NCBI GenBank assembly: GCA_038887515.1
Contig: JAWAKK010000001.1
Coordinates: 192,001 to 256,000, forward strand
From: Candidatus Nezhaarchaeales archaeon
Lineage (GTDB): Archaea > Thermoproteota > Methanomethylicia > Nezhaarchaeales > WYZ-LMO8
Length of the DNA stretch: 64,000 nucleotides
Direction: 5' to 3'
Below the pieces are notes generated by a model. The model worked only from the letters and a program-made list of their open reading frames with translations. It was not told the DNA's origin and ran no database searches. A program made the position numbers and the translations under genes. How positions within the stretch are numbered: the first letter of the stretch is position 1; each line of letters begins with the position of its first letter. Positions 40,804-64,000 of the stretch are shown one piece after another.

Positions 40804-40804
40804 G

Positions 40805-42277: not shown

Positions 42278-43494
42278 TGGATGGAGAGGTTGAGAAAATG
42301 TGGATTTTTCCAGCCGAGCGAAGGAGGGTTCTAGAGGATTTCTATGACTTAATGATATTGTGCAACAAGTGTGGGTACTGCAAGTTTATTTATGCTCCAG
42401 AGGCGAAGGATGCGAGATTTGTGACTCAATGCCCGCGAGGAAACGTGTTTAAGCATCTAGCTTATTACGCTAGCGGAACTATGGAGGTAGCAAGAGGCAT
42501 CGTGGAGAAGAGGCTTAAGTGGAGCAAGACGATAGAACACGTACTGTATACATGTACAGACTGTTATCACTGCGAATTTTGGTGTAATGTAGCGATGCGG
42601 GTCTACCCACTCACGATAATGGAGATAATGAAGGAGACATACATAAAGGAAGTCTGCCTTCCAGATCACTACAAGTGCGTATTAGACAACTTAGAGAAGA
42701 ATCGTAACCCATATGGTGAACCGCACGAAAAGCGCTTTTCATGGCTTAGCAACCCATTGCCTCCGAAGAAGGCTGAACTCATGCTATTTATAGGAGACGA
42801 AGCTGCGTACAAGAATAGAAGCATCGCCTTAGCAGCGGTCAATATACTTCGAAGGTTAAAGGTAGACTTCGGTCTCCTATATGAAGACGAGTGGCATAGT
42901 GGGTACCTACTATTTAGAGGCGGGTTACGTGAAAAAGGCATGGAGATGGTTAAGCACAACTTTGAGGCATTAGTAAGGGCAGGTGCAAAGAGAGTGGTGG
43001 TAGTAAGCCCACATGATTATAGAACATTCAAAGTTGATGCTGAAAATAGCGGCCTACATCCAGACTTTGAAGTACAACACATACTAGAATTCCTTCATCC
43101 TCTAATAGAGGAAAATAAGAACGAATTTAAGATGCTCAACAGGAAGGTAACATACCATGATCCTTGTCAACTGGTAAGACACGTAATGCCGTTCAAGATT
43201 TCGGAACAGCCGCGAGAAATATTAAAAGCGCTAGGCATGGAGGTCGTCGAAATGCCGAGAAATAGGCTAAACGCGTACTGTTGCGGTGCGGGTGGGGGGG
43301 TCCCATTCGGTTACCCCAATGTGACTAAGCTCGTCGCTAGGGCTAGGCTAGCAGAGGCCGCTACAACTGGAGCTAAAGAAGTGGTCGTGTCGTGTCCATC
43401 ATGCGAAATGAGTTTAGGAGCAGTCTGCGGAGAATTCGGGTTATCGGTTAAACACATCCTCACGTTAATTCAAGAAGCTTTGGGTGGTCAGTAA
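42277..43494 (+). CDS. Fe-S oxidoreductase, GlcF/HdrD-like (2x[4Fe-4S] plus CCG domains)
   Basis: CNKCGYC..CP, CTDCYHCEFWC, YHDPC, CCGAGGG, SCPSC. Confidence 0.9.
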   Translation: MDGEVEKMWIFPAERRRVLEDFYDLMILCNKCGYCKFIYAPEAKDARFVTQCPRGNVFKHLAYYASGTMEVARGIVEKRLKWSKTIEHVLYTCTDCYHCEFWCNVAMRVYPLTIMEIMKETYIKEVCLPDHYKCVLDNLEKNRNPYGEPHEKRFSWLSNPLPPKKAELMLFIGDEAAYKNRSIALAAVNILRRLKVDFGLLYEDEWHSGYLLFRGGLREKGMEMVKHNFEALVRAGAKRVVVVSPHDYRTFKVDAENSGLHPDFEVQHILEFLHPLIEENKNEFKMLNRKVTYHDPCQLVRHVMPFKISEQPREILKALGMEVVEMPRNRLNAYCCGAGGGVPFGYPNVTKLVARARLAEAATTGAKEVVVSCPSCEMSLGAVCGEFGLSVKHILTLIQEALGGQ

Positions 43495-44993
43495 TGAGTG
43501 ATGACAATAAAGTTGGTGTAGTAAAGAAAGTCCTAAGCGACATAGTGGGCGCTGAATGGGTCTCGGACGACCCCGCCATCCTCATAGCTTATTCACGCGA
43601 CTACGCGACATACATGAAGTTTAACTGGAAAAGCATATCCCCCCATCTCGTCGTTCTTCCGAGAACTGTTGACGAAGTGAAGGCCATAGTGAAGGTGGCT
43701 AGAGAATACAAAATACCGATAGTCCCCGTAGGCTCTTTTGGTAATCAATTTGCTTGGGGGGTTCCGAAAGCAGGTGGAATAATAGTCGATGTGTCCAGGA
43801 TGGACGAGATACTATGGATAGACGAAGACAACATGGTTGCAGTCGTGGAGGCTGGTTGTCCAATCTTCAAGTTACAAGCAGAAATGTTGAAGAGGAGAAT
43901 GTTTATACATCAACCCGGAGCGTGCTCCACATTTTTAATAGGATCTCACTATACTCACGGCATAGTTAACAAGGCAACCGCTAGGCTAGGATATGTAAAT
44001 CGCCAAATAGTTGGTTATGAAATGGTTCTTGGAGATGGTAGAGTCATCAGGACCGGGAGCTTAGCAAATTACTCTAACCCTAGAGCGCTATGGCCTCACG
44101 GTCCTGGTCCAGACCTTGGTCACTTGCCTAGGATGGCTCAAGGAACTCTAGGCATAGTAACTAAGGTCGCGGTAAGAGGACATCCGTTAGATGAAGAAAC
44201 GAAAATTATTCAGCCTGCTTTCAATGACGTCGATAGGGCGACGGCAGCTCTCGACGAAATAGTGAAGTCAGAGCTCACCACTGGAAGCTCAATGTACACA
44301 GGCTTTAAGTTCACTCAGTACTTCGCCGATACGCCTGAGAGCGCTGATAGGCTTGACAGGGTCAACCCAGAGTGGATGCTCATGCTGTCGTTGCAGGGGA
44401 CCAAGAGGTGGATAGAGTACGCTGAGAAAAGGGTTAGAGAAATTACTAAGAAACACGGCGGGCTAATAGTAACCGATAAGTTGCCATTCTATCAAATGTT
44501 TGCTGATGCTCAAATAAATCAGTCGTGCTCGCTCTTCTCCGAGTTTCCAATAAAGTATTGGTCATACCCAGGGACTGTTGGGGCTCCAGCCGGCATGGTG
44601 GTCTCGGCGCTCTACGACTTCCCGAAGTACTTCAAGTTGATGACGTTGCTATACCTTTACGATCCTATTCTCGGGGATCCAGACGAACTTGACGTGATGT
44701 GGAAGAGAGGTGCAATAATTTATCCGGAGCAGAACGGCCATTACGCGATGTTTGAGTTAATGATAGCTGGCCATCCAACGGATCCACGATTAATCAGAGA
44801 GGTAGCTCCACGGTTCGCTCCAAGGTATTTAAGAGCCCTCGTCAAGCTTGGATTAAGGCTGGACGCTAAATACGGACTTGCACGGCCTTGTGAAGTAGGT
44901 GTAATACCAACGTACATGGACCTTGCAAGGAGGTTGAAGAACCTACTCGATCCGGATGAAATAATGTCTCCAGGAGCATGGGAGGGCATTTAG
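43494..44993 (+). CDS. FAD-binding oxidoreductase (VAO/PCMH-GlcD superfamily), subunit 2
   Basis: VVLP.TV.EV..IV..A....IP.VP, D.SRMD.I, VEAG, GPGPDL, QGTLGIVTK, DPDEIMSPG; TAATG coupling to the upstream gene. Confidence 0.88.
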   Translation: MSDDNKVGVVKKVLSDIVGAEWVSDDPAILIAYSRDYATYMKFNWKSISPHLVVLPRTVDEVKAIVKVAREYKIPIVPVGSFGNQFAWGVPKAGGIIVDVSRMDEILWIDEDNMVAVVEAGCPIFKLQAEMLKRRMFIHQPGACSTFLIGSHYTHGIVNKATARLGYVNRQIVGYEMVLGDGRVIRTGSLANYSNPRALWPHGPGPDLGHLPRMAQGTLGIVTKVAVRGHPLDEETKIIQPAFNDVDRATAALDEIVKSELTTGSSMYTGFKFTQYFADTPESADRLDRVNPEWMLMLSLQGTKRWIEYAEKRVREITKKHGGLIVTDKLPFYQMFADAQINQSCSLFSEFPIKYWSYPGTVGAPAGMVVSALYDFPKYFKLMTLLYLYDPILGDPDELDVMWKRGAIIYPEQNGHYAMFELMIAGHPTDPRLIREVAPRFAPRYLRALVKLGLRLDAKYGLARPCEVGVIPTYMDLARRLKNLLDPDEIMSPGAWEGI

Positions 44994-48374: not shown

Positions 48375-49277
48375 TTAGAAGCGCGATATTTTAAATCTCG
48401 GGTGAGTTGATGGCGGACGTTTTCCATCTTCCATCAGTACTTGACCATAGGCTGCGCTTATAATAGCTATCGCGGGAACAATGAATTCTGCTTCGTGTAT
48501 AGGACCGAAGAACACGAAGTCCCCTCCAATGGCTATTGGCAACCCACTTACGATTGCGGAGCAGGCAGCTGTTAGAGCTATGTTCTTTTTCTGTTTGAGA
48601 GACCTCCACAGTGCAATAGCGTTGTGAGCTCCACAGCCACAAGGATAACCGTAGCGGCTCTTAATTTCGTAAATCGCTTTACAAGCTAGCCCGAGCGTTG
48701 CAAGGTCCATCACTACCGTGTCTATCATTATCTTCTCTATCCCAAAGCTCTTCATTTTAGGGATTAAAACGTCGAGTAGCCTTATCCTCTCTTTGTAAGA
48801 TATTATAGCCTTAGAACTGTAGGTAAGTGCGACCGCCGCTTTAAGCCCAACTTCTTTGGCTTTTTGATATACGTGCTCTTTAGTCTCGGGGTTAAAGGAG
48901 TTTAGAAGCGTTCTATCTAGTATTCCAAGTTCTTTAGCGGTTTGTAGACCACTGATAGCAGCTTCATCGGTTACGTAGTCTATCAGTATTGGTATCTTAG
49001 TTGCATCGGCGGCGAACTCTATGCGTCTCTTTGCGTTTTCAGCGTTAGTACAAACTACGTCAAGCATGCATGGAAGTCCAACCTTATCACATACCTCTTG
49101 GTATTTTGCAATTAAGTCTTGCGCGGCTTCCTTATCTATATTGCCGCTCTCGTCCGAAGTTTTATCGTCTTTAAAGAATATACTGCCTATGACCACTGTG
49201 GGGTACTCTCCAGGCTGTCCACCAACTTTGACACCTGCAATGTCAAAGGTCAATTGGTCCTTCTCAAACTTAAACAC
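48375..49277 (-). CDS. mtrH: Stand-alone MtrH/MtgA/MtoA-family methylcorrinoid:tetrahydropterin methyltransferase
   Basis: F.F.K.Q....IAGVKVGGQPGEYPTV..GSIF, ID, NS.N, D..V.D, P.GCG.HNA, GGDF...GPI; no other mtr subunits nearby. Confidence 0.88.
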   Translation of the reverse strand: MFKFEKDQLTFDIAGVKVGGQPGEYPTVVIGSIFFKDDKTSDESGNIDKEAAQDLIAKYQEVCDKVGLPCMLDVVCTNAENAKRRIEFAADATKIPILIDYVTDEAAISGLQTAKELGILDRTLLNSFNPETKEHVYQKAKEVGLKAAVALTYSSKAIISYKERIRLLDVLIPKMKSFGIEKIMIDTVVMDLATLGLACKAIYEIKSRYGYPCGCGAHNAIALWRSLKQKKNIALTAACSAIVSGLPIAIGGDFVFFGPIHEAEFIVPAIAIISAAYGQVLMEDGKRPPSTHPRFKISRF

Positions 49278-49417: not shown

Positions 49418-51331
49418 ATGACGTTAGAACACAAAACCTCTAAAAAAGTAATGGTCCGCTTTGAACCTCAAGGAAGGAAGGTATCAGTAGAGCAGGGGTT
49501 AACAATTTTAGAAGTTGCGCAGAAAGCTGGTGTTGGAATTAGGAGTGAGTGTGGTGGCCGAGGACTATGTGGGAAGTGTTTAGTTGTAGTTGAAGATCAA
49601 TCAAACTTGAACCCGATATCAATTATTGAACTGCAACAAGTACCTAGAGACAAACTTAAGCTAGGATACAGGCTTGCATGTCAAAGCATTGTCAAAGGCG
49701 ATGTAATGATATTCATCCCACCAGAAAGTAGAATGGAAACAAGGAGAATATTAAGTGAGGGGGCTGAAGAGACCTTCATGCTGGATCCGTCAGTCAAGAA
49801 AATTTACCTATCGTTGCCAAAGCCTAGCCTACAGGACGTTACTCCCGACCTAGAAAGACTTTGTTATCTATTGAGTGAAATGGGAATAGTTGGTGTTGAT
49901 ATAGATCATAAACTAATACAGGCGTTGCCATTGATCTTGAGGCAAGCCGACTGGAAGGTTACAATTACCCTATGGATGGATAAAGAAATAATAGCTATAG
50001 AGGAGGGAAATAAGACCAGCGAAATATACGGCATCTCTGTAGATATAGGCACGTCAAAGATTGTCTTACACTTAGTGAATCTTGCTTCTGGTGAAACTAC
50101 CTCCGTAAAATCTATGGAGAATCCGCAAATAGCCTACGGAGAGGACGTCATCTCGAGGATAAGCTATGCCTCCTTCAATGAGGGAGGGTTGAGAAGGTTG
50201 CAAGAAATCGTAGTTGAAGCCATAAATTCGCTCATAGAAGAAGCGTGCCGAGAAGCCGGCGTAAAGAAAGATAACATATATGAGATAACGGTCGTAGGAA
50301 ACACGGCAATGCACCACATCTTCTTGGGGTACTCACCGAAACAGCTCGCTATCGCGCCATACGTCCCAGTTGTTAAGCGGCCGATAAATGTGAAGGCCGA
50401 GTGCCTGAACCTCAAGGTAAACCCGCTGGCCAACGTCCACGTGCTTCCAATTATAGCTGGTTTCGTGGGCGCTGACGCAGTTGCAGATGTTTTGGCTACG
50501 AGAATTTATGAACTCGATGAAATAAGCTTGCTAATAGACATTGGGACTAACAGTGAAGTCTTCGTAGGTAATAGGGAGGATATAATTTCATGCTCATGCG
50601 CTGCCGGCCCAGCATTCGAAGGGATGCACATAGAGCACGGTATGAAGGCGGTGACGGGAGCTATCGAGAAGGTTAGGATAGACCCTAAAGACTATGAGGT
50701 GGACTATGAAACTATCAATAGTGCTAAGCCTATAGGGATTTGTGGCTCAGCGATAATAGATGCCATTGCCGAGATGTTTAAGTGCGGGATAATAGATAGC
50801 CGCGGACGCTTCAAACGAGACGTCCAATCAAAGCGCTTACGTAGCGAGAATGGTAGGCTAAAATTTGTGATAGCTTGGAGGGAGGAGACCGGAACTGGCC
50901 ACGATATAACCATTAGCGAGAGGGATATACAAGAAATCATATTAGCGAAGGCGGCAATACGTACTGGTATATCGATACTAATGAAGGAGAAGAATTTGAA
51001 GGAAAAGGACTTAGATCGCATATACGTTGCCGGAGCCTTTGGAAACTACTTAAACCCTGAAAGCGCGTTATTCGTAGGCTTATTCCCCGATGTCGACTTA
51101 AGCAAGATAAGATTCGTCGGCAACGCAGCAATAACTGGAGCAAAGCTTTGTCTACTTTCAAAGAATATGAGGAAAAGCGCTGAATACCTTTCAAACACCA
51201 TCCGCTACGTCGAGCTAACGATACATCCGGACTTTCATAGAGAATTCGTCGAGGCCCTTTTCATTCCACATCGAGATATAAACAGGTACCCGACCGTAGC
51301 GAGGTATTTGGGCAAAAAATTAACCACCTAG
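49418..51331 (+). CDS. ATP-dependent corrinoid reductive activator (RACo/MtoD type: N-terminal [2Fe-2S] plus ASKHA/DUF4445)
   Basis: CGGRGLCGKC...RLAC, DIGTSK, NPQ..YG.DVISR, GNTAMHH, DIGTN.E, AGPAFEG, GICGS, AGAFG, GNAA. Confidence 0.93.
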   Translation: MTLEHKTSKKVMVRFEPQGRKVSVEQGLTILEVAQKAGVGIRSECGGRGLCGKCLVVVEDQSNLNPISIIELQQVPRDKLKLGYRLACQSIVKGDVMIFIPPESRMETRRILSEGAEETFMLDPSVKKIYLSLPKPSLQDVTPDLERLCYLLSEMGIVGVDIDHKLIQALPLILRQADWKVTITLWMDKEIIAIEEGNKTSEIYGISVDIGTSKIVLHLVNLASGETTSVKSMENPQIAYGEDVISRISYASFNEGGLRRLQEIVVEAINSLIEEACREAGVKKDNIYEITVVGNTAMHHIFLGYSPKQLAIAPYVPVVKRPINVKAECLNLKVNPLANVHVLPIIAGFVGADAVADVLATRIYELDEISLLIDIGTNSEVFVGNREDIISCSCAAGPAFEGMHIEHGMKAVTGAIEKVRIDPKDYEVDYETINSAKPIGICGSAIIDAIAEMFKCGIIDSRGRFKRDVQSKRLRSENGRLKFVIAWREETGTGHDITISERDIQEIILAKAAIRTGISILMKEKNLKEKDLDRIYVAGAFGNYLNPESALFVGLFPDVDLSKIRFVGNAAITGAKLCLLSKNMRKSAEYLSNTIRYVELTIHPDFHREFVEALFIPHRDINRYPTVARYLGKKLTT

Positions 51332-51566
51332 GATTGGGCAGTTCTTTTGGAAAGGCTTCGAATTTTATGTTAACAAAGAAGTTTATCGTCCAAAGCTTAC
51401 AGTTATCCGTTTGACTTTTTATAGATGCCTAGACTTACGTTAAATTGATCGTTGAGTCGCTTAACTAATGCTTGCAATCGGCATCCTACATTGATCGTTA
51501 AAAGCGTAAAAACATATTTAAATGTAAAATGAGCGTAAAAAGTAAACCCCCAGGAGGTTCAGTAAA

Positions 51567-52232
51567 ATGTGTCCTACTATCGAAAATGAACTAAAAGAAT
51601 TATTGAAAGCAATAGTGGATCTCGAAGAGGGCAGGGCTATCGAAATAACGAAGAGGCTCGTAGAGTCCGGTGTAGACCCAGTAAGGATACTGGATTGCGT
51701 TCGAGAAGCATCTGAAGAGATAGGGAAGAGATTTGAAAGCGGAGAGTACTTCGTGGCCGACTTAGTGATGGCAGGAGAGATATTGAAAGGAATAAGTGAA
51801 ATAGTGAGACCTAAGCTCAAAGAGTTTGGGAAGTCCAGAGAAGTAATAGGTAGACTATTAATAGGAACTGTTGAGGGAGACATACATGACATAGGTAAGA
51901 AGATCGTTATAACGATGGCTGAAGCCGCTGGGTTCGAAGTCCTCGATATAGGGGAAGATGTGCCCCCACAGAAGTTTGTTGAAGCGATAAAGGAGTTCAA
52001 CCCCGACATAGTTGGAATGTCCGGTTTACTTACGCTAGTAATAGACTCAATGAAGAGGACAGTCGACGCAATAAAGGCTGCAGGTCTTAGAGACAAGGTG
52101 AAAATAATAATCGGAGGTGGAAGGGTGGACGAGCATGCCAAGGAATACACCGGCGCAGATGCTTGGACAAACGATGCTGCGTCGGGAGTAAGAACGATGG
52201 TGAAATGGATGGAGGAGAGGAAAAGGAAATGA
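51567..52232 (+). CDS. Corrinoid (B12-binding) methyl-carrier protein, MtoC/MtaC-like
   Basis: Helical cap (G..FE.GEYF..DL) plus GTVEGDIHDIGK (DxHxxG), SGLL, IIGG; GGAGG RBS. Confidence 0.95.
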   Translation: MCPTIENELKELLKAIVDLEEGRAIEITKRLVESGVDPVRILDCVREASEEIGKRFESGEYFVADLVMAGEILKGISEIVRPKLKEFGKSREVIGRLLIGTVEGDIHDIGKKIVITMAEAAGFEVLDIGEDVPPQKFVEAIKEFNPDIVGMSGLLTLVIDSMKRTVDAIKAAGLRDKVKIIIGGGRVDEHAKEYTGADAWTNDAASGVRTMVKWMEERKRK

Positions 52233-53497
52233 TTAAGGAACCCATAGACGAAATGAGAGAGAGACAGAAGAAAGAGCCCGAAGAGGTCCTGAAAGAGAGG
52301 GCCACAATATTTGAAGCAGCGGTAGATCTTAAAGAGCCCGAAAGAGTTCCATTGCTACTACTTTCATGTGGTCACCTGCTCGGTAAGTATTACAAATTAA
52401 GCGAGATATTCTTCAACTACGATACATTAAAGAAGGCTTCACTAAAAGTCATCGAAAACTTCCCAGCAGACTTATTTGCACCGGTACCTGCCGCCGATGG
52501 CTTCATATTTTCAGTAGCCTTCGCAGATTACCCCGATCTCTCACCCGTAGTCCGCTTCATAGCGGGACCTATACACGACATTTTGGGTGATAAATACACT
52601 CGATGGCCTGGAAGGGAGCTTAGCGAGAACACTACTTTTCAGTTTATAGGTGGAAAGTTCATGGAGGTCGAAGAGTACGACAAGCTTATTGAAGACCCAA
52701 TAGGTTTCATAAATGAGGTAGTGGTGCCTAGAGTTTGCACAAACCTAGCTAAACCAGGTATATCTAGGTACGCGACGTATGCTAGACTCGGCATAGCTGG
52801 TCGAGACTTCCTATTTAACGGTATGATAGGGACAAGCATCGAGCTAACTAAGGTCGGCATACCACCAATTCCGCTTACGTCTGCTTATGCCCCGCTAGAC
52901 GTCATAAGTGACTTTATGAGGTATCCAACTAATATGATGCTCGACTTACGTAGGTACCCTGATAAAGTTAAGAGTGCTACCGAGGTGCTGGTTGAGCCAA
53001 TAATCAAGATAGCGATGGCACTTAAGCCAGCAGGAGCGAAATTTGCTTTCATTCCGCTACATTTAAATGAGATGCTTCCTCCAAAGCTTTACAACGAGTT
53101 CTACTGGCCCTACTTAAAGGAAGTAATAGTGAGACTTTACCAAAACGGTATAAGGTCATACATTCTTTTTGAAGGGAACCACATGCCCCACTTAGAGACG
53201 ATACTTGAGTTACCTAAAGGATGGGGTCTCGGGGTCTTTGAAAAAGGCGATATAAAGAAGATTAGAGAAACCTTAAAGGGACATACTTGCGTTGCCGGAG
53301 GCATCCCCATATCGTTGCTCCTGCAAGCCACTCCGGACAAAATAGATAGTTACGTCAAAGAATTGCTTGCAGACCTAGCTCCAGGTGGAGGCTTCATACT
53401 TGGGCCAGGTATAGGCGAAATACCAGCCGAAGTACCGGATGCCAATTTAAGGGCACTGGTCAACGCAGCACTAAAGTATGGTAGATATAAGAGGTAA
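52229..53497 (+). CDS. URO-D-fold substrate:corrinoid methyltransferase (MT1), MtoB/O-demethylase-like
   Basis: EPERVP, P.D...D..R.....DL...PDKV, F.PLH, FYWP.LK, FEG, LPKG, GGGFI; lacks the MtaA HxC Zn motif; ATGA overlap with the corrinoid gene (start 52229). Confidence 0.8.
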   Translation: MIKEPIDEMRERQKKEPEEVLKERATIFEAAVDLKEPERVPLLLLSCGHLLGKYYKLSEIFFNYDTLKKASLKVIENFPADLFAPVPAADGFIFSVAFADYPDLSPVVRFIAGPIHDILGDKYTRWPGRELSENTTFQFIGGKFMEVEEYDKLIEDPIGFINEVVVPRVCTNLAKPGISRYATYARLGIAGRDFLFNGMIGTSIELTKVGIPPIPLTSAYAPLDVISDFMRYPTNMMLDLRRYPDKVKSATEVLVEPIIKIAMALKPAGAKFAFIPLHLNEMLPPKLYNEFYWPYLKEVIVRLYQNGIRSYILFEGNHMPHLETILELPKGWGLGVFEKGDIKKIRETLKGHTCVAGGIPISLLLQATPDKIDSYVKELLADLAPGGGFILGPGIGEIPAEVPDANLRALVNAALKYGRYKR

Positions 53498-53716: not shown

Positions 53717-55627
53717 ATGTTCGTAAAGAGAGGAGTACACGTTTACAGGGGTAACGAGTATCATCAAAGGCTCCACGATTACGATGAGGCTATAAGACCC
53801 CAGAAGATAAGCTTGGAGACTTGGGGAAAAATTAAGGACAAGATAGAATGCGTGTACTTCCTTGGATACCCTGAAATATCGAAGGAACCTGAAAGTCGAC
53901 CACAATATAAGGTTAAGGTAGAGAAGGACGTTATGATACCTGTGAGGGATGGGGTAAAGATAGCAGCTGACGTCTATAGACCGGATGCAGAGGGCAAGTT
54001 TCCAACGATCTTGTCGTTCGGTAGCTGGGGCAAAGATATATGTGAAATGGTCATGTGGTTGCCTCCTCAGCAGTATCAGCCAGACACACCTTTCTGGGCC
54101 GGGAACCTTGAAGCCGGTCCTATACCTTATCTCGTTGAGCGTGGTTACGTAGTAGTAGTCCCTGATCCTAGAGGATGGAAGCTATCAGGTGGAGAGATAG
54201 ACGTATTTGTTGAAACTATGTTCAATGATTGGCCTCGGGATATATACGACATAATCGACTGGATAATAAAGCAACCCTGGTCTAATGGCGTAGTAGGAAT
54301 GATGGGAGAATGCATATATGGTGCAGCTCAAATATTCGCTGCAGCACTAGCCCCTCATCCAGCCCTTAAGGCTATAGCTCCTTGGGAATTCGTAGGCGTG
54401 CTGGTAAGCGACGTCAATTTTACTGGTGTAGTACATACGATGCTCTACAGCATCTTGACTAATAGGCACGTAAACGACTCAAATGCTTGGCCGAGATGTA
54501 AGCTGAGACCTTGGGCCTTTAAGCATTTAAGCAAAGACGAGGTAGAAAACAGATTAAAGGAACTACTTGAACATCCCGACATCAAGTACAACGCAAGGTA
54601 TTATGGAGTCCTACAGTATCCCGACATGGATCCTGCAGGCTTCATGGTTGATGGGCTAATGTTCTGGTTACATCCACCTCCTCCTGGAAAAGAGTTCCCG
54701 ATAAACGACAACTTCCCTTACGATAAGATAAAGATACCAGTATATCTCAACACACCGTGGAACGTCGTAGTATACATATGGGACACATTCTATGCTTACG
54801 AGAAGGTGGGCTCTAAAGCTAAGAAGTTGTTCGTCTCTATACCAAGAGAGATGAGAAGACCTTGGGTTGACTATCCCGAAGAGATTCTTAGATGGCACGA
54901 CTACTGGCTCAAAGGCATAGACACGGGAATCGTTGATGAACCGCCCGTCAAGCTGTTCGTTACAGGAATAAACATGTGGAAGTTCGAAAGAGAATGGCCT
55001 CCAGCTAGAGCAAGTTATACGAAGATTTACTTGCATCCAGGAGGTTGCTTATCGTTCGAGAAGCCTCCAGCAAACTCGCCCCCAGACTACTTCGTACAGC
55101 ATCCTCTCTACGAGGACCCAACAGTTTACGCGATGTTCTATACGTCAGAGCCTCTAAAAGAGGAAATAGAAGCCATAGGTCCCGTAGAGTTGATACTTGA
55201 GGCTAGCATAGACGGTGACTTCACGAACTGGATCATCGACTTAGTTGATATATCTCCATTAGGAGAAGCGCAGGTTCTAGGTCAAGGATGGCTTTGCACG
55301 TACTTCAGGGAAATTGATGAAGCAAAGTCTAGGCCTGGATGGCCTCGATATAAGAGGACGCATGCTAAACCAACACCTCGCAACGAGAAAATAAGGTATA
55401 GGATAGCATTAATGCCTATTGCCCACGTATTCCAAGTTGGCCATAGAATACAGGTTATAGTTAGAAACCAAGACGACCTGCTGAGCATAGACGGCTTGAT
55501 AAGGGACTACATACTCCCAAGAATGGAGAAAGTCACTCACACGATATACTACGGAGAGTCAGCATTGCTGCTACCTATAGTACCTAAACCGAGAGAGAGG
55601 ATCGTAATAGCGGAGGGACTAGCCTAA
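53717..55627 (+). CDS. CocE/NonD (X-Pro dipeptidyl-peptidase-like) alpha/beta-hydrolase-fold protein with atypical active site
   Basis: VMIPVRDG..IAADVYRP, RGYVVV..DPRG...S.G, QPWSNG.VGM.G, RW.DYWLKG, EWPP, C-terminal jelly-roll (F..GHRI). Confidence 0.9.
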   Translation: MFVKRGVHVYRGNEYHQRLHDYDEAIRPQKISLETWGKIKDKIECVYFLGYPEISKEPESRPQYKVKVEKDVMIPVRDGVKIAADVYRPDAEGKFPTILSFGSWGKDICEMVMWLPPQQYQPDTPFWAGNLEAGPIPYLVERGYVVVVPDPRGWKLSGGEIDVFVETMFNDWPRDIYDIIDWIIKQPWSNGVVGMMGECIYGAAQIFAAALAPHPALKAIAPWEFVGVLVSDVNFTGVVHTMLYSILTNRHVNDSNAWPRCKLRPWAFKHLSKDEVENRLKELLEHPDIKYNARYYGVLQYPDMDPAGFMVDGLMFWLHPPPPGKEFPINDNFPYDKIKIPVYLNTPWNVVVYIWDTFYAYEKVGSKAKKLFVSIPREMRRPWVDYPEEILRWHDYWLKGIDTGIVDEPPVKLFVTGINMWKFEREWPPARASYTKIYLHPGGCLSFEKPPANSPPDYFVQHPLYEDPTVYAMFYTSEPLKEEIEAIGPVELILEASIDGDFTNWIIDLVDISPLGEAQVLGQGWLCTYFREIDEAKSRPGWPRYKRTHAKPTPRNEKIRYRIALMPIAHVFQVGHRIQVIVRNQDDLLSIDGLIRDYILPRMEKVTHTIYYGESALLLPIVPKPRERIVIAEGLA

Positions 55628-55637
55628 AGATTAGGAC

Positions 55638-55769
55638 ATGATGGGGTTGGTGTACATGATATATTGGGAATGGTTGCTTGGATGGGAAGGCCTAGCCTTC
55701 TACGTACTGATAATATTGTGCATCATAGGGGCATTGGCCTTAAGAAAAGGCAAGAAGCGAGGAGGATGA
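55638..55769 (+). CDS. Small single-TM accessory protein of the sodium:solute symporter (not in ORF track)
   Basis: (MMGLVY)MIYWEWLLGWEGLAFYVLIILCIIGALALRKGKKRGG-stop; GGTG precedes ATG 55656; its 3' end contains the GGAGG RBS of the symporter. Confidence 0.65.
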   Translation: MMGLVYMIYWEWLLGWEGLAFYVLIILCIIGALALRKGKKRGG

Positions 55770-55773
55770 AAAT

Positions 55774-57315
55774 ATGGAAATTAGGTATGATATATTGATA
55801 CCAACAATGGTATACTACTTCATAGCCACCATAGGTTTTGGTCTCTACTATCGCAAGAGATATGGTAAAGCTGCATACGACTTCGCTTTGGCGAGCAGAA
55901 CTCTACCGTGGTGGCTAGTTTTCACAGGCGCTGTCCTCATACCTTTCGGAGGGGGGCATACCGTATCGCCAGCCGAGGCTACATGGGCTTTCGGTGTTGG
56001 CCCACTGTTATGGCCCATCTTGGGCGCCGTTCCCTCGCTCTTGTTGCTCTTCTTCGTTACTGGTAGAATCATGAGGGGAATAGGTGCTAGAACCGTCGGT
56101 GAGGCTATGGAAATGACTTTCGGCCCTACGGCAAGGATTCTACTGGCGGTCACGACATGCCTCCACATGATGATTATAGCTGGTCTAGAACTTTATGGCA
56201 CAGCCTCGGCAATCTACGGGTTTACAGGGTTCGAATACGCATTCTGCATAGTCATAGCTTTCGTCTTAATCATAATATACACATTCTTCGCGGGCGTAAT
56301 GCAAGCCTCGGTACTCAATGCTATTAACCTTGCAGTCTACTACGTAGGCTTCATATTAGCGTTCGTAGCCTTAACCTTCTGGCTTGCACCTATCGGCGGT
56401 TGGGATGCTGCCGCCCAAGCGATAGTTCAGCGTATGGGCGATGCGGGGGTAACACTGTTCTCTAGTAGAGCAGCTGAGATGATAGCAATCCTCGGCATAC
56501 CTATAGCTATATCCCACATAGCTGCCGTCACGGTATGCCAAGGAGCCGCTCAACCCGTTCTATCAGCAAAAGATCCAAAGGAGATAATTAAGGGATGGCC
56601 CCTACTCATAATATTTAACGGCCTTGCCCCCATAATATGGGTCATCGCAGGTCTCTTAGCCTTCTCAGCGCCAGCTTCCCTTTATGGCGGGGCCGCAACA
56701 CTCATAGAAAATATGAGGGCTCAAGGGTTAGCCGTGCCAGCGACTATAGTCACAATAACACAGCTATGGCCTGCCGCCGCCGCGGCACTATTAATGGCAC
56801 TATTAGCTGCAACGCTGTCTACAGCCGGGGCCTTCTGTTTAGGTGCTGCTACGTCACTAACTGAGGACATAGTTAGGCGCTTCTTAAAACCGGATATGAG
56901 CGAGAGAAGTGCAGTAACACTGATGAGGCTCCTAATAGTGTTAACTGGAGTCATAGCGCTAATAAGCGCCTTCCTGAAACCATTCTTGATGGCTGGCTTC
57001 ATCTGGATATTTACGTTCTACATACCTCTATTCGTATCGTTCATACTAGGGCTCGCTTGGAAGAGAAACGAAAAAGCAACAATAGCGACCACCATGATAA
57101 GCTGGGCCATAAATATACTATGGATACTCTTCAAGCCGGTAATAGAGCAGACGATGCCAATATACTTACACCCAGCTATGGGTAACGTCTACCCAGTCAC
57201 GATAGCCTCAATAATAGTATACGTAGTTCTAGTACTAGTAATGAAAGGAACTAAACCGGGCCTACTTAAAGAAATTAAAGGTACCGCCGTCGAACAAGCC
57301 ATAGTAAAACCATAA
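55774..57315 (+). CDS. Sodium:solute symporter (SSS/PutP family)
   Basis: DF.LA.R.LPW, GGG, about 13 TM helices, SAKD, LAA.LST, W.R.N...A. Confidence 0.9.
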   Translation: MEIRYDILIPTMVYYFIATIGFGLYYRKRYGKAAYDFALASRTLPWWLVFTGAVLIPFGGGHTVSPAEATWAFGVGPLLWPILGAVPSLLLLFFVTGRIMRGIGARTVGEAMEMTFGPTARILLAVTTCLHMMIIAGLELYGTASAIYGFTGFEYAFCIVIAFVLIIIYTFFAGVMQASVLNAINLAVYYVGFILAFVALTFWLAPIGGWDAAAQAIVQRMGDAGVTLFSSRAAEMIAILGIPIAISHIAAVTVCQGAAQPVLSAKDPKEIIKGWPLLIIFNGLAPIIWVIAGLLAFSAPASLYGGAATLIENMRAQGLAVPATIVTITQLWPAAAAALLMALLAATLSTAGAFCLGAATSLTEDIVRRFLKPDMSERSAVTLMRLLIVLTGVIALISAFLKPFLMAGFIWIFTFYIPLFVSFILGLAWKRNEKATIATTMISWAINILWILFKPVIEQTMPIYLHPAMGNVYPVTIASIIVYVVLVLVMKGTKPGLLKEIKGTAVEQAIVKP

Positions 57316-57762: not shown

Positions 57763-58509
57763 ATGATAAACTATTGGGTGCAACGCATGCTTGAAGGAAA
57801 AGGGTTATCAAAATATTTCGGTAAACTAGCAGCAGTTAAAGATGTTAACTTCAAGATATGCGAAAGGGAAATAGTGGGCCTCATAGGTCCAAATGGTTCC
57901 GGAAAAACGACTTTATTTAACGTAATATCAGGATTCTACAAACCGGAAACAGGTAAAGTCTTCTTCATGGGGAAAGACATAACAGGTCTTCCCCCTTTTA
58001 AGATATGTAGAATGGGTATTGCAAGGACGTTTCAACTTATTAGGCCCTTCTTGACCATGACGGTGCTTGAGAACGTAATGGTTGGTAGCCTATATGGCGC
58101 CGGTAAGGGTATGATTACTAGTCGAGAAGAAGCCATGGAACTCCTCAAATTCGTCGGGTTAGACAAGAAAAAAGACGTCTTAGCAAGCCAGCTTAACCTT
58201 TGCGAGCGAAAATTCCTTGAAATCGCGAGGGCCTTAGCTACGAAACCTAAGGTGCTTTTACTTGATGAACCATTAAGCGGTCTAAACCCTACGGAGATAC
58301 TTCAAGCAAGAGAACTAATCAGAAAAATTAGGGACGACTTCGGAATTACAGTGTTTTGGGTAGAACACATAATGAAGGCCCTAAGAGGAGTCGTTGAAAG
58401 AGTCATCGTATTGAATTATGGAGAGAAGATAGCCGAGGGCCCCCTCGAAGAGGTCACGCGAGACCCTAAGGTCGTAGAAGCTTACTTAGGAGAGAGGTGG
58501 ATGATCTAG
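57763..58509 (+). CDS. livG: LIV-type ABC transporter ATP-binding protein
   Basis: GPNGSGKTT, GIARTFQ, LLDEP..GLN, VEH, V.EAYLG; start may be ATG 57787. Confidence 0.92.
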   Translation: MINYWVQRMLEGKGLSKYFGKLAAVKDVNFKICEREIVGLIGPNGSGKTTLFNVISGFYKPETGKVFFMGKDITGLPPFKICRMGIARTFQLIRPFLTMTVLENVMVGSLYGAGKGMITSREEAMELLKFVGLDKKKDVLASQLNLCERKFLEIARALATKPKVLLLDEPLSGLNPTEILQARELIRKIRDDFGITVFWVEHIMKALRGVVERVIVLNYGEKIAEGPLEEVTRDPKVVEAYLGERWMI

Positions 58510-58518
58510 GTGATATGA

Positions 58519-59226
58519 ATGCTTGAAGTACAAAACGTAGACGTATTTTACGGAGAGCTGCAAGTCCTATGGGGTGTTTCGTTAAAGGTTGAGAAGGGCG
58601 AGATAGTTGCATTGATAGGTCCTAATGGAGCAGGCAAATCAACACTATGCAAGTCGGTCATAGGCTTGCTCCGCCCAAAGAACGGCACCATCACATTCAT
58701 GGGCAAGCGGATAGACAACTTATCAACGCCAGACATAATAAGGCTCGGAATATCCATAGTACCAGAGGGTCGAAGGCTCTTTGGAAACATGACAGTAAGG
58801 GAAAACCTCGAACTTGGAGCATACGTTTCCGAGGTCAGAAAGAACATAGGTGAACAGCTTGAATGGGTCTTCAACATATTCCCCATATTAAAGGAAAGGC
58901 AGAATCAGCTTGCAGGAAGTTTGAGCGGTGGCCAGCAACAGATGTTGGCTATAGCGAGAGCTTTGATGTCGAAACCTAGGTTCCTAATACTCGATGAGCC
59001 GTCGCTCGGTTTAGCACCGAAAGTTGTGCTCACAGTTTATGAAATTATAAGGAAGTTGCGCGATGAAGGGGTAACCATACTTCTAGTCGAGCAGTATGCT
59101 AGTCAAGCTTTGAAGAACTCCGATAAAGCTTTCATACTTGAAAATGGGAGGATCGTTGGTTGGGGGGCGTCAGAAAACCTTCTTAAAGACGAACGTGTTA
59201 GGAAAGCTTACTTAGGAGAGGAGTAG
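58519..59226 (+). CDS. livF: LIV-type ABC transporter ATP-binding protein
   Basis: GPNGAGKST, VPEGRRLF, LSGGQQQMLAIARALM, DEPSLGLAP, VEQ. Confidence 0.94.
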   Translation: MLEVQNVDVFYGELQVLWGVSLKVEKGEIVALIGPNGAGKSTLCKSVIGLLRPKNGTITFMGKRIDNLSTPDIIRLGISIVPEGRRLFGNMTVRENLELGAYVSEVRKNIGEQLEWVFNIFPILKERQNQLAGSLSGGQQQMLAIARALMSKPRFLILDEPSLGLAPKVVLTVYEIIRKLRDEGVTILLVEQYASQALKNSDKAFILENGRIVGWGASENLLKDERVRKAYLGEE

Positions 59227-59227
59227 C

Positions 59228-60112
59228 ATGTCTGTTCCTGGACTTACAGACTTATTAAGCATAGGAAACATAGTAGTCAACGGCTTGCTCCTTGGCGGTC
59301 TATTCGCATTAATAGCGTTTGGATTATCGGTATTCGTGGGAGTCATGAGGGTTATAAACATAGCTCACGGAGACTTTGCAATTTTATCAGCATACTTTGC
59401 GCTATCAATAATGTTATTCCTAAGAGTTGATCCTTTCATAAGCTTAATAGCCGTTGTACCGATAATGTTCGTGGTGGGCTACGCCTTTCAAAGGTTCATA
59501 ATAAATAGGCTACTCCCCATGGGAGCTAACCAACCTGTCATAGCGACTTTTGCACTAAGCATCGTAATACAAAATCTATTACTCTTGACTTTCACAGCGG
59601 ACGCCCGAAGCCTGATAGTTCCCTACTTACTAGAGCCCCTAGAATTCTTTGGAATAAGCATTTCACGACGCTACGGGGTGAGCTTCCTTACTGCCCTTAT
59701 AATGTTCGTGGCTATATACTTCTTCCTTAAGAAGACTTATACCGGCAAGGCTATGCGAGCGGTGCCATTTGATATCGAAGCTGCGAAAATGCTTGGAATA
59801 AGGCCCTTCTCGATCTATAATTTTGCGGCAGGCTTCGCTATGATTGCGGTAGCTGTTGCAGGCGTGCTGTTAGGTATGGTTTTCACATTTTACCCCGATA
59901 CGGGCCCGATGTTCCTATTATTGTCTTTCGGAGCCGTAGTGGTCGGGGGCGTTGGAAGCCTAAAGGGAACTCTCATAGGAGGCATAATAATGGGCGAAGC
60001 ACTGGTCCTGGGAGGATACTTGGGTTCACACTACCAGTTAATGTTTTGCTACCTAGTAATATTAGCAATCCTAATAGCAAGACCTCAAGGAATCTTCGGG
60101 GAGAGGTTCTAA
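59228..60112 (+). CDS. livH: LIV-type ABC transporter permease
   Basis: NGL..G...AL.A.GL....GV..VIN.AHG, T..GKAMRAV, VVGG.GS..G, RPQG.FG. Confidence 0.92.
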   Translation: MSVPGLTDLLSIGNIVVNGLLLGGLFALIAFGLSVFVGVMRVINIAHGDFAILSAYFALSIMLFLRVDPFISLIAVVPIMFVVGYAFQRFIINRLLPMGANQPVIATFALSIVIQNLLLLTFTADARSLIVPYLLEPLEFFGISISRRYGVSFLTALIMFVAIYFFLKKTYTGKAMRAVPFDIEAAKMLGIRPFSIYNFAAGFAMIAVAVAGVLLGMVFTFYPDTGPMFLLLSFGAVVVGGVGSLKGTLIGGIIMGEALVLGGYLGSHYQLMFCYLVILAILIARPQGIFGERF

Positions 60113-60113
60113 G

Positions 60114-61064
60114 ATGTCCATACTAAAATTTGAGCTTAAACGAAACTATGTTTACATAGTAGTCGTAATAGCAATACTTGCATCCCTACCTATGTGGGTA
60201 GGCGGCTTTTTGAGAGATGCATTGATACTCTTCTTCTTATACCTTGCTGCTGCTGAGGTCTGGGGCTTTATGGCTAAGCACGCCGGCATGGTTTCTCTAG
60301 GTCAACAAATTTTCATAGGAATTGGAGGCTATATGACTGCGGTCCTATGTATGTATGAGGGCCTGCCGTTGTGGGCTAGTGTTATAGTCGCCGCCTTAAT
60401 AGGGAGTGGATTGGCAGCAGCCCTCTCCTTTCCGTTGTTAAGGTTGCGCGGCATTTACTTCTCGATAGGCTCCTTCCTTACAGCTGAAATTATTAAGTTA
60501 ATCTTCAATAGCTGGGAGTACGTTGGCGCCGGTAAGGGGCTAATATTTGTCGGAGCCTACGGTATACCCACGACAGTAATCTACTACCCTGCCATGGTTA
60601 TCGGTCTGTCCTCTATGTTCTTAATATATTACTTGTACCATTCAAAGCTAGGCTTCGGCCTTAGAAGCATAGGAGCTGATGAAGATGCTGCCGCTAGCCT
60701 TGGCGTTGACACATTTAGATGTAAAGCTCTCCTCTTCGTCTTTTCCGGCTTCATTACAAGCTTAGTGGGAGCAATAAATGCAATCCACCATACCTATCTA
60801 CATCCAACTTCAGCATTCAACATACTTTGGACGGTAAGCTTCCTATTCGTAGCGGTCCTGGGAGGACTTGGAACGATAATTGGGCCAGTTATCGGAAGCG
60901 CTATCTTTACGGCTTTAACATACTTGTTCTCTATGTACATTGGGCTAAGCCTGCTACTAGAGGGATTGGTCGTACTCGTTATATTACTGGTAGTTCCAGG
61001 AGGAATTTGGGGCTCCATAGCAAAGAAGTTGAGATACAAGATAAAACTAAAAGAACCCCTCTAA
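60114..61064 (+). CDS. livM: LIV-type ABC transporter permease
   Basis: G.VSLG...F.G.GGY, RLRG.YF.I, S..G..LR.I..DE.AA..LGV, GG.GT..GP..G. Confidence 0.92.
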   Translation: MSILKFELKRNYVYIVVVIAILASLPMWVGGFLRDALILFFLYLAAAEVWGFMAKHAGMVSLGQQIFIGIGGYMTAVLCMYEGLPLWASVIVAALIGSGLAAALSFPLLRLRGIYFSIGSFLTAEIIKLIFNSWEYVGAGKGLIFVGAYGIPTTVIYYPAMVIGLSSMFLIYYLYHSKLGFGLRSIGADEDAAASLGVDTFRCKALLFVFSGFITSLVGAINAIHHTYLHPTSAFNILWTVSFLFVAVLGGLGTIIGPVIGSAIFTALTYLFSMYIGLSLLLEGLVVLVILLVVPGGIWGSIAKKLRYKIKLKEPL

Positions 61065-61136
61065 TGGTTCATAATTGAAGGAGCTCGATGATTACCCGGT
61101 AATAAAACTTTTATTCTTTTTCATTACTATATTCTA

Positions 61137-62507
61137 TTGATTCTTATGAAGAAGACGTATGCTGCAATCATTGCTATAGTGGTCGTTGTCGTCGTTATTG
61201 TTGCGGGCGTTGCCGCCTACTTCTTAACCCTACCTCCACCAGGTCCAGCTGCCCCCGAGTACATAAAGATCGGCTGGCCAGTCCCATTAACTGGGGGCAT
61301 AGCAGCCTTCGGAGAGCCAGATCCTTGGATTGCTAGACAAATCGAGGATTACGTTAACAACGTTATGGGCGGCGTTTACTTAGCTGAGTACGGTAAGAAG
61401 GTCCCGATAAAGATCATTATGAGGGATACTAAGAGCGATCCTAATACTGCTGCTTCAGTTGCTGCTGAGCTAATAACTAGAGAGAACGTAGACTTAATGG
61501 TAGTCCTACACACGCCCGGAACAGTTAACCCGGTAACGGGGCAATGTGAGAGGTACGGGGTACCATGCATAGCTCTCGATTGTCCCGTGCTCTCATGGCT
61601 TGAAGGTGCTCCTTACAGGTGGTCGTACTTAGCGTTCTGGACTGAAGTCGACGTAGCCCACGTTTTTGTGGGGATATGGGACTCCTTGGGAGACAAGACT
61701 AACAAAGTTGTTGCAGGTCTATGGAGCGATGATCCTGACGGCAGGACGTTCCGAGAACTAACAGTTAAGCTGGCAAGGACACGGGGATATAGAGTTATAG
61801 ACTCCGGCTTAGTGCCCTACGGCACCTCCGATTTCAGCACATACATTGAAGAGTGGAAGAGAGCTGGAGCAGAAATACTTACTGGGAACTTTATTCCACC
61901 AGACTTTGCTACTCTCTGGAGGCAATGCCGTGAGCGCAGCTTTGTACCTAAAGTCGCTACAATAGGAAGGTCAGTTCTCTTCCCAGCTCAAGTAGAGGCC
62001 CTAGGAGGCGACTTAGGGGTCGGCCTGACAACTGAAGTATGGGTGCACGTGGTTTCTCCATTCCATTCATCGCTGACTGGCCAGACTCCAAGAGACCTAG
62101 CTGAAGCATACGAAAAAGCTTCGGGCAAACAGTGGAGTACGCCGTTAATATTCTCGCACGCGGCTTTCGAGCTAGTGGTCGACGTTCTTAAGAGGGCTGG
62201 TAGCTTGGATAAGGAGAAGGTTAGGGTGGCTATTGCGAATACTGACTTGGATACCATTGTTGGTCACATAAACTACAAGAAGCCGTTAAAGGAGATACTT
62301 AGCCCCGAAGAGTATGCAATCTACCAAGAATATCCGAAGTTGGTACAATACCAAGACCACTACTCCATAACTCCAGTCATCGGCGGACAGTGGGTTAGAG
62401 GGACGAAGTGGCCGTTCGAGCTCGAAGTAATCTACAACTGGAAGTACGGCAACATACCAGAAACAGCACCAGTAAGGCTTATACCCGAACTTCTCGGCAG
62501 AACATAA
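61137..62507 (+). CDS. LIV-type (PBP1) ABC substrate-binding protein, TM-anchored
   Basis: IKIG...PLTG..A.FG, D.KSD...A, DFS, PPDF, D.DTIVGHI. The ligand cannot be read from sequence; this family includes aromatic-acid binders. Confidence 0.88.
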   Translation: MILMKKTYAAIIAIVVVVVVIVAGVAAYFLTLPPPGPAAPEYIKIGWPVPLTGGIAAFGEPDPWIARQIEDYVNNVMGGVYLAEYGKKVPIKIIMRDTKSDPNTAASVAAELITRENVDLMVVLHTPGTVNPVTGQCERYGVPCIALDCPVLSWLEGAPYRWSYLAFWTEVDVAHVFVGIWDSLGDKTNKVVAGLWSDDPDGRTFRELTVKLARTRGYRVIDSGLVPYGTSDFSTYIEEWKRAGAEILTGNFIPPDFATLWRQCRERSFVPKVATIGRSVLFPAQVEALGGDLGVGLTTEVWVHVVSPFHSSLTGQTPRDLAEAYEKASGKQWSTPLIFSHAAFELVVDVLKRAGSLDKEKVRVAIANTDLDTIVGHINYKKPLKEILSPEEYAIYQEYPKLVQYQDHYSITPVIGGQWVRGTKWPFELEVIYNWKYGNIPETAPVRLIPELLGRT

Positions 62508-62580: not shown

Positions 62581-62635
62581 ATTTTATCCATGAAATTTAA
62601 TCATGCTACTTCTTTTTTTCACTACTTATTGAGAG

Positions 62636-62651
62636 GTGCAAACCTTAAATA
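62636..62651 (+). promoter_or_regulatory. BRE-TATA promoter for the AthL-like gene
   Basis: GTGCAAAC-CTTAAATA about 28 nt upstream of GTG 62680, consistent with a leaderless or short-leader transcript. Confidence 0.45.
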
Positions 62652-62679
62652 CTCACTTCATGTCCCTTACCTATTTATT

Positions 62680-64000
62680 GTGGGAACCTTGCCTGAACCT
62701 GAGACCGGTTTTGGTATATTATTGCCTGACGGTACTAGGCGATGCACTGGCTGTACTGTCGGCGGACCAGTGTTCGCCTACGTCAAAGACGGAAAGATAA
62801 CTAGGGTGACGCCAATCGAATTCGGGCCAGACGATGCTGAAAGCTGGGAAATAGAGGCTAGAGGGAGAGTCTTTAGACCTCCTCGAAAGGCACTTGTAGC
62901 GCCATACGTCTTGTCTGTTAGGAGCAGAATTTACTCGCCCGAAAGGCTACTGACGCCCATGAAGAGGATTGACTTTGATCCTGACGCTCCACCTGACAAG
63001 AGAAAGCAAGAAAACAGGGGGAAGTCGGGTTACGAACCTATAACTTGGGAAGAAGCTCTAGAGATAGTTGCCAACGAGATAGAGAGGGTTAGGAGGCAGT
63101 ACGGACCTGAAGCGATTGCCGCTACAGCAGATTCTCACTACGAGTGGGGCAACATACACTATAGGCATAGCACTCGCTTTAGGTTCTTCAACTTACTTGG
63201 TTTCACTTACGTAGATCATAACCCTGATAGCTGGGAGGGATGGCATTGGGGAGCAATGCACATGTGGGGCTTCAGCTGGAGGTTGGGTATCCCCGAACAG
63301 TACGATCTATTGTGGGACGCATTAAACCACTGCGACATGATCGTGTTCTGGAGTGCAGACCCGGATACGAATAGAGCTATAGGCTATCAAGGATATGAGT
63401 CAGCCCCCTGGAGGCTTTGGCTTAAGGAGCTCGGAGTCAAGGTCGTGGCTGTAGATCCGTTCTACAATTGGACAGCCCACATTATGTGGGCCGACAAGTG
63501 GTTTGCCCCTAGACCCGGTACCGATACTGCGCTGGCGGCAGCAATAGCCTATGTATGGATAACGGAGGATAGATACGACAAGAAGTTCGTTGAGACTAAA
63601 TGTTATGGATTTGACGAATTCAAGAAGTACATCCTCGGAGAAGCCGATCATACACCTAAGACCCCCAAGTGGGCTGAAGAACTGACCGGAATACCGGCTC
63701 GAGAAATAGTGGCGCTTGCTAGAGAGTGGGCTTCGAAGAGGACGATGCTAGCCGCTGGAGGTCTAGGTGGTTGGGGCGGAGCGTGTAGGAGTGCATATGG
63801 TCATGAGTGGGCCAGGTTCATGGTTGCTCTTGCCGCAATGCAAGGCATCGGAAAGCCGGGAGTCAACATTTGGGGTACTACGCAAGGCGCCCCCGTTGAC
63901 TGCACGTTCTTCTTCCCAGGATACGCTGAAGGTGGTATCTCGGGAGACCCCGTGAAGAGCGCTGCCTTCAAGAACCTATTAGCTCGCGGAATGACTAAGA
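62680..64000 (+). CDS. athL: Molybdopterin oxidoreductase, pyrogallol-phloroglucinol transhydroxylase large subunit (AthL)-like; truncated by the right window edge, not in ORF track
   Basis: Manual translation from GTG 62680/TTG 62689 is open to the edge: GGPVFAYVKDGKITR..W.IEARG..F.PPRK..PMKR.DFDP..SHYEWGNIHYRHS..HNPDSWEGWHWGAMHMWGFSWRLG.PEQYDLL..GGLGGWGGACR..GKPG.N.W.TTQG.P..FPGYAEGGISGD. Confidence 0.9.
   Translation, partial: MGTLPEPETGFGILLPDGTRRCTGCTVGGPVFAYVKDGKITRVTPIEFGPDDAESWEIEARGRVFRPPRKALVAPYVLSVRSRIYSPERLLTPMKRIDFDPDAPPDKRKQENRGKSGYEPITWEEALEIVANEIERVRRQYGPEAIAATADSHYEWGNIHYRHSTRFRFFNLLGFTYVDHNPDSWEGWHWGAMHMWGFSWRLGIPEQYDLLWDALNHCDMIVFWSADPDTNRAIGYQGYESAPWRLWLKELGVKVVAVDPFYNWTAHIMWADKWFAPRPGTDTALAAAIAYVWITEDRYDKKFVETKCYGFDEFKKYILGEADHTPKTPKWAEELTGIPAREIVALAREWASKRTMLAAGGLGGWGGACRSAYGHEWARFMVALAAMQGIGKPGVNIWGTTQGAPVDCTFFFPGYAEGGISGDPVKSAAFKNLLARGMTK

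Follow-up and report, generated by a model that had tools for sequence, protein, structure and literature searches.

An AthL-family molybdenum enzyme gene in a Nezhaarchaeales genome and its association with phloroglucinol-type genes

Genes at the locus

The 64,000-nucleotide window analyzed here (positions 192,001 to 256,000 of contig JAWAKK010000001.1 from a Candidatus Nezhaarchaeales genome) ends inside a large gene. An open frame on the plus strand, 62590..63999, is still open at the 3′ end of the window, and the AthL-like gene without a stop codon that the initial annotation had proposed for this position proved to be real: beyond the window the frame runs on uninterrupted, with no stop or frameshift until extended window position 65316, answering that annotation's own concern about a downstream frameshift. 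By homology, Pfam matches and fold, the gene (plus strand; 62689..64000 in the window, C1:254689-257316 in the host genome, G000) is athL-like and encodes an 875-aa large subunit of the Mo-bisPGD type. TTG 62689 is the likely start, giving 875 aa; the public gene call P0352, also 875 aa, is the same as the query protein except at residue 1, and close athL relatives share this start point. Position 62680, from which the gene had earlier been described, is indeed an in-frame GTG but lies three codons before the likely start. ATG 62590 was rejected as the start, since it is upstream of a TATA-like box and relatives start at the TTG position; this putative box, TTAAATA (62645..62651, plus strand), was read by eye upstream of the athL-like start. 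In three RNA runs from hot springs, partly fitting reads numbered 0, 0 and 8, most of them 90-95% alike.

The small-subunit gene (athM/bthL-like; C1:257320-258162, plus strand, outside the window) begins four bases past the large-subunit stop. Its 280-aa product has 12 Cys, three predicted [4Fe-4S] clusters and a C-terminal beta-sandwich, and matches 4v4c_B end to end with 228.9 bits; a neighboring small subunit that combines three [4Fe-4S] motifs with a C-terminal sandwich domain is a trait of AthL/BthL. Behind it, also outside the window, Pfam identifies a sodium:solute symporter (C1:258481-259971). By eye, the operon shows neither a signal peptide nor a gene for a membrane anchor, and it contains no dedicated electron-donor gene; the enzyme would be located in the cytoplasm.

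Upstream of athL, the plus strand carries a Liv-type ABC transporter of two ATPases, two permeases and a binding protein (57763..62507), a CocE/NonD hydrolase with a sodium:solute symporter (53717..57315), a pair whose linkage with athL relatives do not keep, and a putative Mto-like set that comprises a corrinoid activator (AcsV/RACo), a corrinoid protein and a URO-D-fold methyltransferase (49418..53497). A gene for an MtrH/MtgA-family methyltransferase (48375..49277, minus strand) is divergent from the corrinoid genes. The methyl-transfer genes resemble the MtoABCD layout, which is reported for Nezhaarchaeota in the available part of PMC8359953; the best Holophaga matches of the methyltransferase stand at 34-35%. 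With a CocE hydrolase and a methyltransferase set upstream on the same strand, and with many uncharacterized branches in the family, the enzyme might be thought to act on an unrelated aromatic or heteroaromatic substrate supplied by these adjacent genes. This is very improbable, since the neighbors are not conserved: near athL in 66 metagenome loci, a methyltransferase was found in none, a corrinoid protein in 2 and CocE in 1, and a methyltransferase adjoins athL in 2 of 67 GTDB loci.

Family assignment and fold of the large subunit

In a PDB search, the best match to the query was 4v4c_A, the pyrogallol hydroxytransferase large subunit of P. acidigallici, at 1074.7 bits; the next PDB match scored 287 bits, so the likeness is not due to chance. 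Against true AthL (P0381 = P80563), 479 of 877 aligned columns (55%) are identical, and the assignment to the AthL family made from the letters alone thus holds; the three sequence blocks quoted in its support were all found in the query, matching AthL. Pfam searches of the large and small subunits and their neighbors returned PF21423, PF00384 and PF01568 among the matches for the athL-like product, with the AthL-type first domain, PF21423, at 85.8 bits (cut-off 27). The AlphaFold model of the large subunit (mean pLDDT 74.9, with low confidence at residues 179-202, around the active site) matches the transhydroxylase crystal structure 4v4c_A with a TM of 0.91, the comparison that had been proposed as a check. 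Full-length homology and fold, both nearest AthL, place the protein in the AthL/RhL-PgtL branch of the DMSO reductase family. The N-terminal FS0 cluster motif is absent, as there are only two Cys near the N terminus and these are not kept in relatives.

Compared with AthL/BthL of P. acidigallici (P80563; PDB 4V4C/4V4D/4V4E), the archaeal pair is alike in subunit size (875 + 280 aa here versus 875 + 274), sequence, fold, the NPDSW Ser motif, all 12 pocket residues and a 12-Cys small subunit with a C-terminal sandwich domain; it differs in its archaeal host, its separate and earlier-branching subclade, and the substitutions S142D, H145Y, M146E and G151H. The enzyme type is a known one, represented here by an archaeal member.

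Active-site pocket and the His loop

Ser181, the serine of NPDSW that had been singled out as the Mo-ligating residue, is encoded by AGC at 63229..63231 (plus strand) and aligns with AthL Ser175, which we take to be the Mo ligand. Alignment further pairs AthL H144, Y152, R153, D174, S175 and W176 with query H150, Y158, R159, D180, S181 and W182, and AthL W354, Y404, F468, C557 and Y560 with query W362, Y412 (codon 63922..63924, plus strand), F474, C564 and Y567. With S143, these AthL positions make up a pocket of twelve residues, 12/12 of which are identical in the query; the roles of the AthL pocket residues were reportedly described by Messerschmidt in 2004. Formal alignment thereby bears out the retention of the catalytic His, Asp and Tyr and of the substrate-binding Tyr-Arg pair (H150, D180, Y412, Y158-R159), put forward earlier. 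The available part of PMC10100899 lists the pyrogallol enzyme as Ser-ligated.

How far these residues specify the reaction was gauged from 133 sequences: locus proteins with a minimum of 45% identity to the query and 740 aa in length, supplemented by a selection of database proteins, with four outgroups dropped. H144, Y152, S175 and W176 are present in 133/133, and D174 and Y404 in 132/133, whereas R153 (107/133), F468 (110/133), C557 (89/133) and W354 (58/133, with 18 more gapped at W354) are kept in the query but variable in other branches. Occurring in 132-133 of 133 members, the ~1000-aa group described below included, the catalytic His/Asp/Tyr trio marks the AthL family, not the reaction, and is not diagnostic of a transhydroxylase. 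Hence, the residues are kept as claimed, but the step from them to a transhydroxylase is weak, and the stronger proposition that kept His/Asp/Tyr proves transhydroxylase activity was rejected. All twelve residues together discriminate better than the trio, yet are common (158 of 352 family sequences). Pocket signature set against gene context gave 22/44 versus 20/73 loci, a comparison that was given no weight because its rows are kin and include 18 gapped at W354. In the 35-40% paralogues, Y404 is aligned in one alignment and not in another, and it is not counted as kept there.

The loop from D148 to R159 (63130..63165, plus strand) keeps AthL S143, H144, Y152 and R153 and carries the four substitutions listed above. 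The change from SSHHMW to DSHYEW had been read correctly, and G151H is a further one; H145Y is rare (5 of 133 sequences). A shift in specificity, which had been suggested for DSHYEW, finds no contextual support: the closest relative that shares DSHYEW, at metagenome locus L160, sits in a phloroglucinol-type gene run.

Phylogeny of the archaeal subclade

The family is large, with 2909 matches at E ≤ 1e-50 among 7995 scored. Two FastTree phylogenies (123 and 137 rows) and an IQ-TREE quick tree of 36 chosen rows all agree: the query shares a clade (support 99) with metagenome proteins and others from Bathyarchaeia records, and this clade branches outside a Dehalococcoidia group, a ~1000-aa proteobacterial group and a strict AthL clade of Holophaga, Sporobacter, Flavonifractor, Lachnospiraceae and Actinomycetota proteins. 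In the 36-row tree, the strict AthL clade has an SH-aLRT of 100 with the query outside, and forcing the query clade together with it was rejected (AU p=1.1e-7, for groups picked after earlier trees). The family tree that had been called for therefore confirms the AthL family but puts the protein outside the strict AthL clade, in an archaeal subclade shared with Bathyarchaeia; in the sense of membership in the clade of characterized AthL, the query is not a strict orthologue. In these AthL-based comparisons, none of the three outcomes that had been named as refuting the annotation (placement outside the family clade, loss of active-site residues, a frameshift) was observed. The AthL stand-in sequence shares 76-84% identity with strict AthL orthologues. 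The AthL-like operons of Dehalococcoidia, bacterial and likewise predicted from genomes only in the available parts of PMC3971608 and PMC4959651, encode 62-66% relatives beside the same neighboring gene set.

In the tree, the ~1000-aa proteobacterial group lies nearer AthL than does the query. Its plasmid members adjoin VOC-family and fumarylacetoacetate-hydrolase genes, with an acyl-CoA synthetase gene in 2 of 3, which suggests that other reactions may exist within the AthL family. A group in such a ring-dioxygenase-like context nesting nearer AthL than the query, together with the single Ser-ligated family of RhL and PgtL in the available part of PMC10100899, would be compatible with a net hydroxylase like RehLS or DbhLS, in which a water-derived OH is added and two electrons leave via the small subunit. 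RehLS of Aromatoleum anaerobium and DbhLS of Thauera aromatica AR-1 share with the archaeal pair the Ser-ligated RhL/PgtL family and the L+S layout, but differ, by the descriptions in the available source text, as net hydroxylases that feed hydroxyhydroquinone oxidation in nitrate reducers. Several observations make such a hydroxylase improbable here. The ~1000-aa group swaps R153 for W/Y, whereas the query keeps R153; the query protein is the sole match to itself in its own genome; and the RehLS product, hydroxyhydroquinone, enters a Btd/Bqd route in a nitrate reducer according to the available part of PMC10084136, whereas the genes neighboring the query's close relatives are phloroglucinol-type. 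No btdLS or bqdLMS genes were recognized within 20 kb around the gene. Sequences named RehL or DbhL were not encountered in the homologue searches, the representatives, the GTDB loci, the plasmids or an order-level search around a 'Pseudomonadota' locus.

Several other family members have unusual architectures or affiliations. Members of the ~1000-aa group at L107, L108, L109 and L154 combine the R153 to W/Y change with an N-terminal extension, which in the one tested had no Pfam match. A sister class at 36-44% (DGH..DSW, lacking Y152/R153; L006-L009, L120-L123, L126, L127) occurs in 7 of the 9 other genomes in the host's taxonomic family. A 1086-aa frame at L148:8851-12108 (G005) has a 4Fe-4S domain followed by an AthL-like domain, an apparent fusion of small and large subunits. 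P0348, an 875-aa protein of the same cluster, is labelled Thermosphaera sp.; the label may be a loose one, or the gene may have moved between thermophilic archaea.

Phloroglucinol-type genes and gene context

A seven-gene phloroglucinol-type cluster for a cyclase, an SDR, a cupin, CoA-transferase a/b, a BKACE and a 3HCDH occupies 6.5 kb of the host genome (C1:576040-582548; L095:11040-17548), ~320 kb downstream of athL. The cyclase has a W-x-Y that by eye resembles the DPGC signature. According to the available part of PMC10470551, C. scatologenes breaks down phloroglucinol with enzymes of the SDR, cyclase, 3HCDH and BKACE families (PGR-DPGC-TfD-TAL), and all four families are clustered both here and beside close athL relatives. 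Relative to that system, with orthology judged by family and context, the archaeal cluster has an extra cupin and CoA-transferase pair, and its BKACE has Ile at the diagnostic position where C. scatologenes TAL has Trp; it also lacks the Glu that marks the lysine-pathway enzyme.

Among relatives, the linkage to this ring-cleavage pathway is one of adjacency. At L160, whose protein is 85% identical and has the same DSHYEW, the genes for CoA-transferase a/b, BKACE, 3HCDH, cupin, SDR, cyclase, AthL and AthM follow one another on one strand, continuing after athM with a symporter, a binding protein and Liv genes. Behind athLM, L161 (76%) carries the complete gene set, L156-L159 have BKACE and 3HCDH near athL, and L155 (92%, on a 10-kb contig) has the transporter only. 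The seven closest metagenome loci (75-92%) thus divide into two with the whole set by athLM, four with BKACE and 3HCDH, and one with none. The 66 metagenome loci include BKACE in 34, 3HCDH in 30, cupin in 23, SDR in 21 and cyclase in 21, and the 67 GTDB loci include SDR in 18, 3HCDH in 16, BKACE in 14, cyclase in 13 and cupin in 9; many loci in both sets are near-copies and not independent. Relatives of the Liv transporter (70-78%) stand beside a phloroglucinol-type cluster in the archaeon G135 (L247), and the binding protein near the host cluster shares 57% identity with its counterpart upstream of athL.

The association is incomplete across genomes. Of 15 genomes in the order, one has the close cyclase. 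G227 (97% complete), which encodes a 73% query-clade protein in a gene cut at a contig end, has no close cyclase, SDR or BKACE; G475 has cyclase and BKACE, with SDR absent at the cut-off used; and in three further genomes of the host's taxonomic family, the AthL-like proteins (62-65%) have altered pockets and a close cyclase is absent. The archaea G135, G396 and G398 have a close cyclase and no athL match, so the cluster does not need an AthL-like enzyme.

The genome also contains candidate sources of both polyphenols. One of its two UbiD genes is closest to the AroY protocatechuate decarboxylase (304 bits), and such an enzyme could make pyrogallol from gallate. A PhlG/phloretin-hydrolase gene in the genome could supply phloroglucinol directly; it lies near the cluster (L096:79-4882) with genes for an amidohydrolase, an aldehyde:ferredoxin oxidoreductase and the binding protein. 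In two archaea whose cluster has no BKACE, a ~400-aa protein is encoded next to the 3HCDH gene (L247:14147-15352, L249:6821-8053); by motif it is presumably a DRE-TIM (homocitrate/isopropylmalate synthase-like) protein, which may replace BKACE there. In the window, two FAD-binding oxidoreductases flank a CCG/Fe-S protein (40736-44993), and a like trio (27-33%) precedes SDR-cyclase genes in L165, L199 and L201.

Proposed reaction and pathway

Taken together, the gene codes for an intact catalytic subunit. The enzyme is an AthL-family bis-PGD protein of two subunits with molybdenum (or tungsten), and is probably a transhydroxylase that would convert pyrogallol to phloroglucinol and feed phloroglucinol fermentation. 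The transhydroxylase reading follows mainly from gene context, which is stronger evidence for it than the kept catalytic residues. Counting against it are the position outside the strict AthL clade, the four changes in the loop round the catalytic His, the ~320-kb distance of the cluster, the lack of the cluster in G227, the archaea with a close cyclase and no athL match, the PhlG/phloretin-hydrolase gene as another potential source of phloroglucinol, and the Ile of the BKACE.

The same gene context fits equally well an enzyme that serves this pathway with another polyhydroxybenzene, either through hydroxyhydroquinone transhydroxylation or through one-way reductive dehydroxylation of 1,2,3,5-tetrahydroxybenzene with electrons arriving via the small-subunit clusters. 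AthL chemistry includes both half-reactions, the query branches deeply outside strict AthL with an altered His loop, and sequential hydroxyhydroquinone transhydroxylations are reportedly carried out by P. massiliensis. Such a reading is nevertheless judged unlikely, given that the 12 pocket positions equal those of AthL, that the operon has no dedicated electron-donor gene, and that the AroY-like decarboxylase offers a source of pyrogallol. Reductive dehydroxylation, if it occurs, would be an electron sink for a fermenting archaeon.

For the preferred pyrogallol transhydroxylase, the steps would follow those reportedly laid out for AthL by Messerschmidt in 2004. Pyrogallol would bind the Ser-ligated metal and be oxidized to an o-quinone, with His150 and Asp180 as acid-base groups; 1,2,3,5-tetrahydroxybenzene, activated by Tyr412, would add to the o-quinone; and ether cleavage would free phloroglucinol and restore the cosubstrate, with no net electron flow. 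Aromatic substrates may be taken up via the Liv ABC transporter or the symporters, and gallate may be decarboxylated by the AroY-like UbiD before transhydroxylation, after which the ring is predicted to be reduced and hydrolyzed and the product oxidized to triacetate, which would be split to acetyl-CoA. O-demethylation by the neighboring Mto-like set possibly feeds the ring pathway, this being its weakest link.

Distribution and relation to known archaeal metabolism

The host genome (1.29 Mb, 94% complete) carries CdhC, two thiolases and a MobA-like frame, and no match to mcrA was found in it. Proteins with 61% or more identity to the query are encoded in 4 of the order's 15 genomes, and these four belong to a single family. 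Across the phylum, 6 of 401 sampled genomes have such a protein, counting the host and with only two candidates scored per genome. A broader proposal, tentative and rather doubtful as a whole, is that the archaeal AthL subclade, thermophilic and represented in a Nezhaarchaeales-like genome and in several Bathyarchaeia, enables archaea that are not methanogens to demethylate lignin- and tannin-derived aromatics and then ferment the ring via phloroglucinol, a complete route in the manner of Holophaga, using an enzyme that is earlier-branching than bacterial AthL, heat-stable and rebuilt in its His loop. If true, the tie between an archaeal enzyme and phloroglucinol-type genes would bring archaea into anaerobic polyphenol turnover, extend to them a fermentation known from bacteria, and provide a natural variant, likely heat-stable, with which to test the diphenyl-ether mechanism, now based on a single enzyme.

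Both the chemistry and the very large family are known. In the available parts of the sources, AthL-like copies are predicted in Chloroflexi (PMC3971608, PMC4959651), AthL is mentioned only in a tree legend (PMC7327174), the downstream cluster is already reported in Archaeoglobus (PMC10470551), and a 2023 survey (Wells 2023, PMC10100899) has no archaeal entry among 285 RhL/PgtL sequences. In the available part of PMC8359953, A. fulgidus and M. shengliensis carry out O-demethylation and then release the hydroxylated ring, and the methoxydotrophs named there as cleaving the ring are bacteria. No description of an archaeal transhydroxylase was found in the literature covered, which excluded most subscription papers and whose supplements could list such genes. 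Public annotations do name copies in Bathyarchaeota and Nezhaarchaeota, some of them labelled 'pyrogallol hydroxytransferase'.

Two further features of the host genome were noted. One frame (C1:714699-716117) joins an N-terminal part that by eye is TrmB-like to a MobA-like domain, and a 1247-aa gene product in the window (31125-34868) resembles reverse gyrase by eye, pointing to a thermophile.
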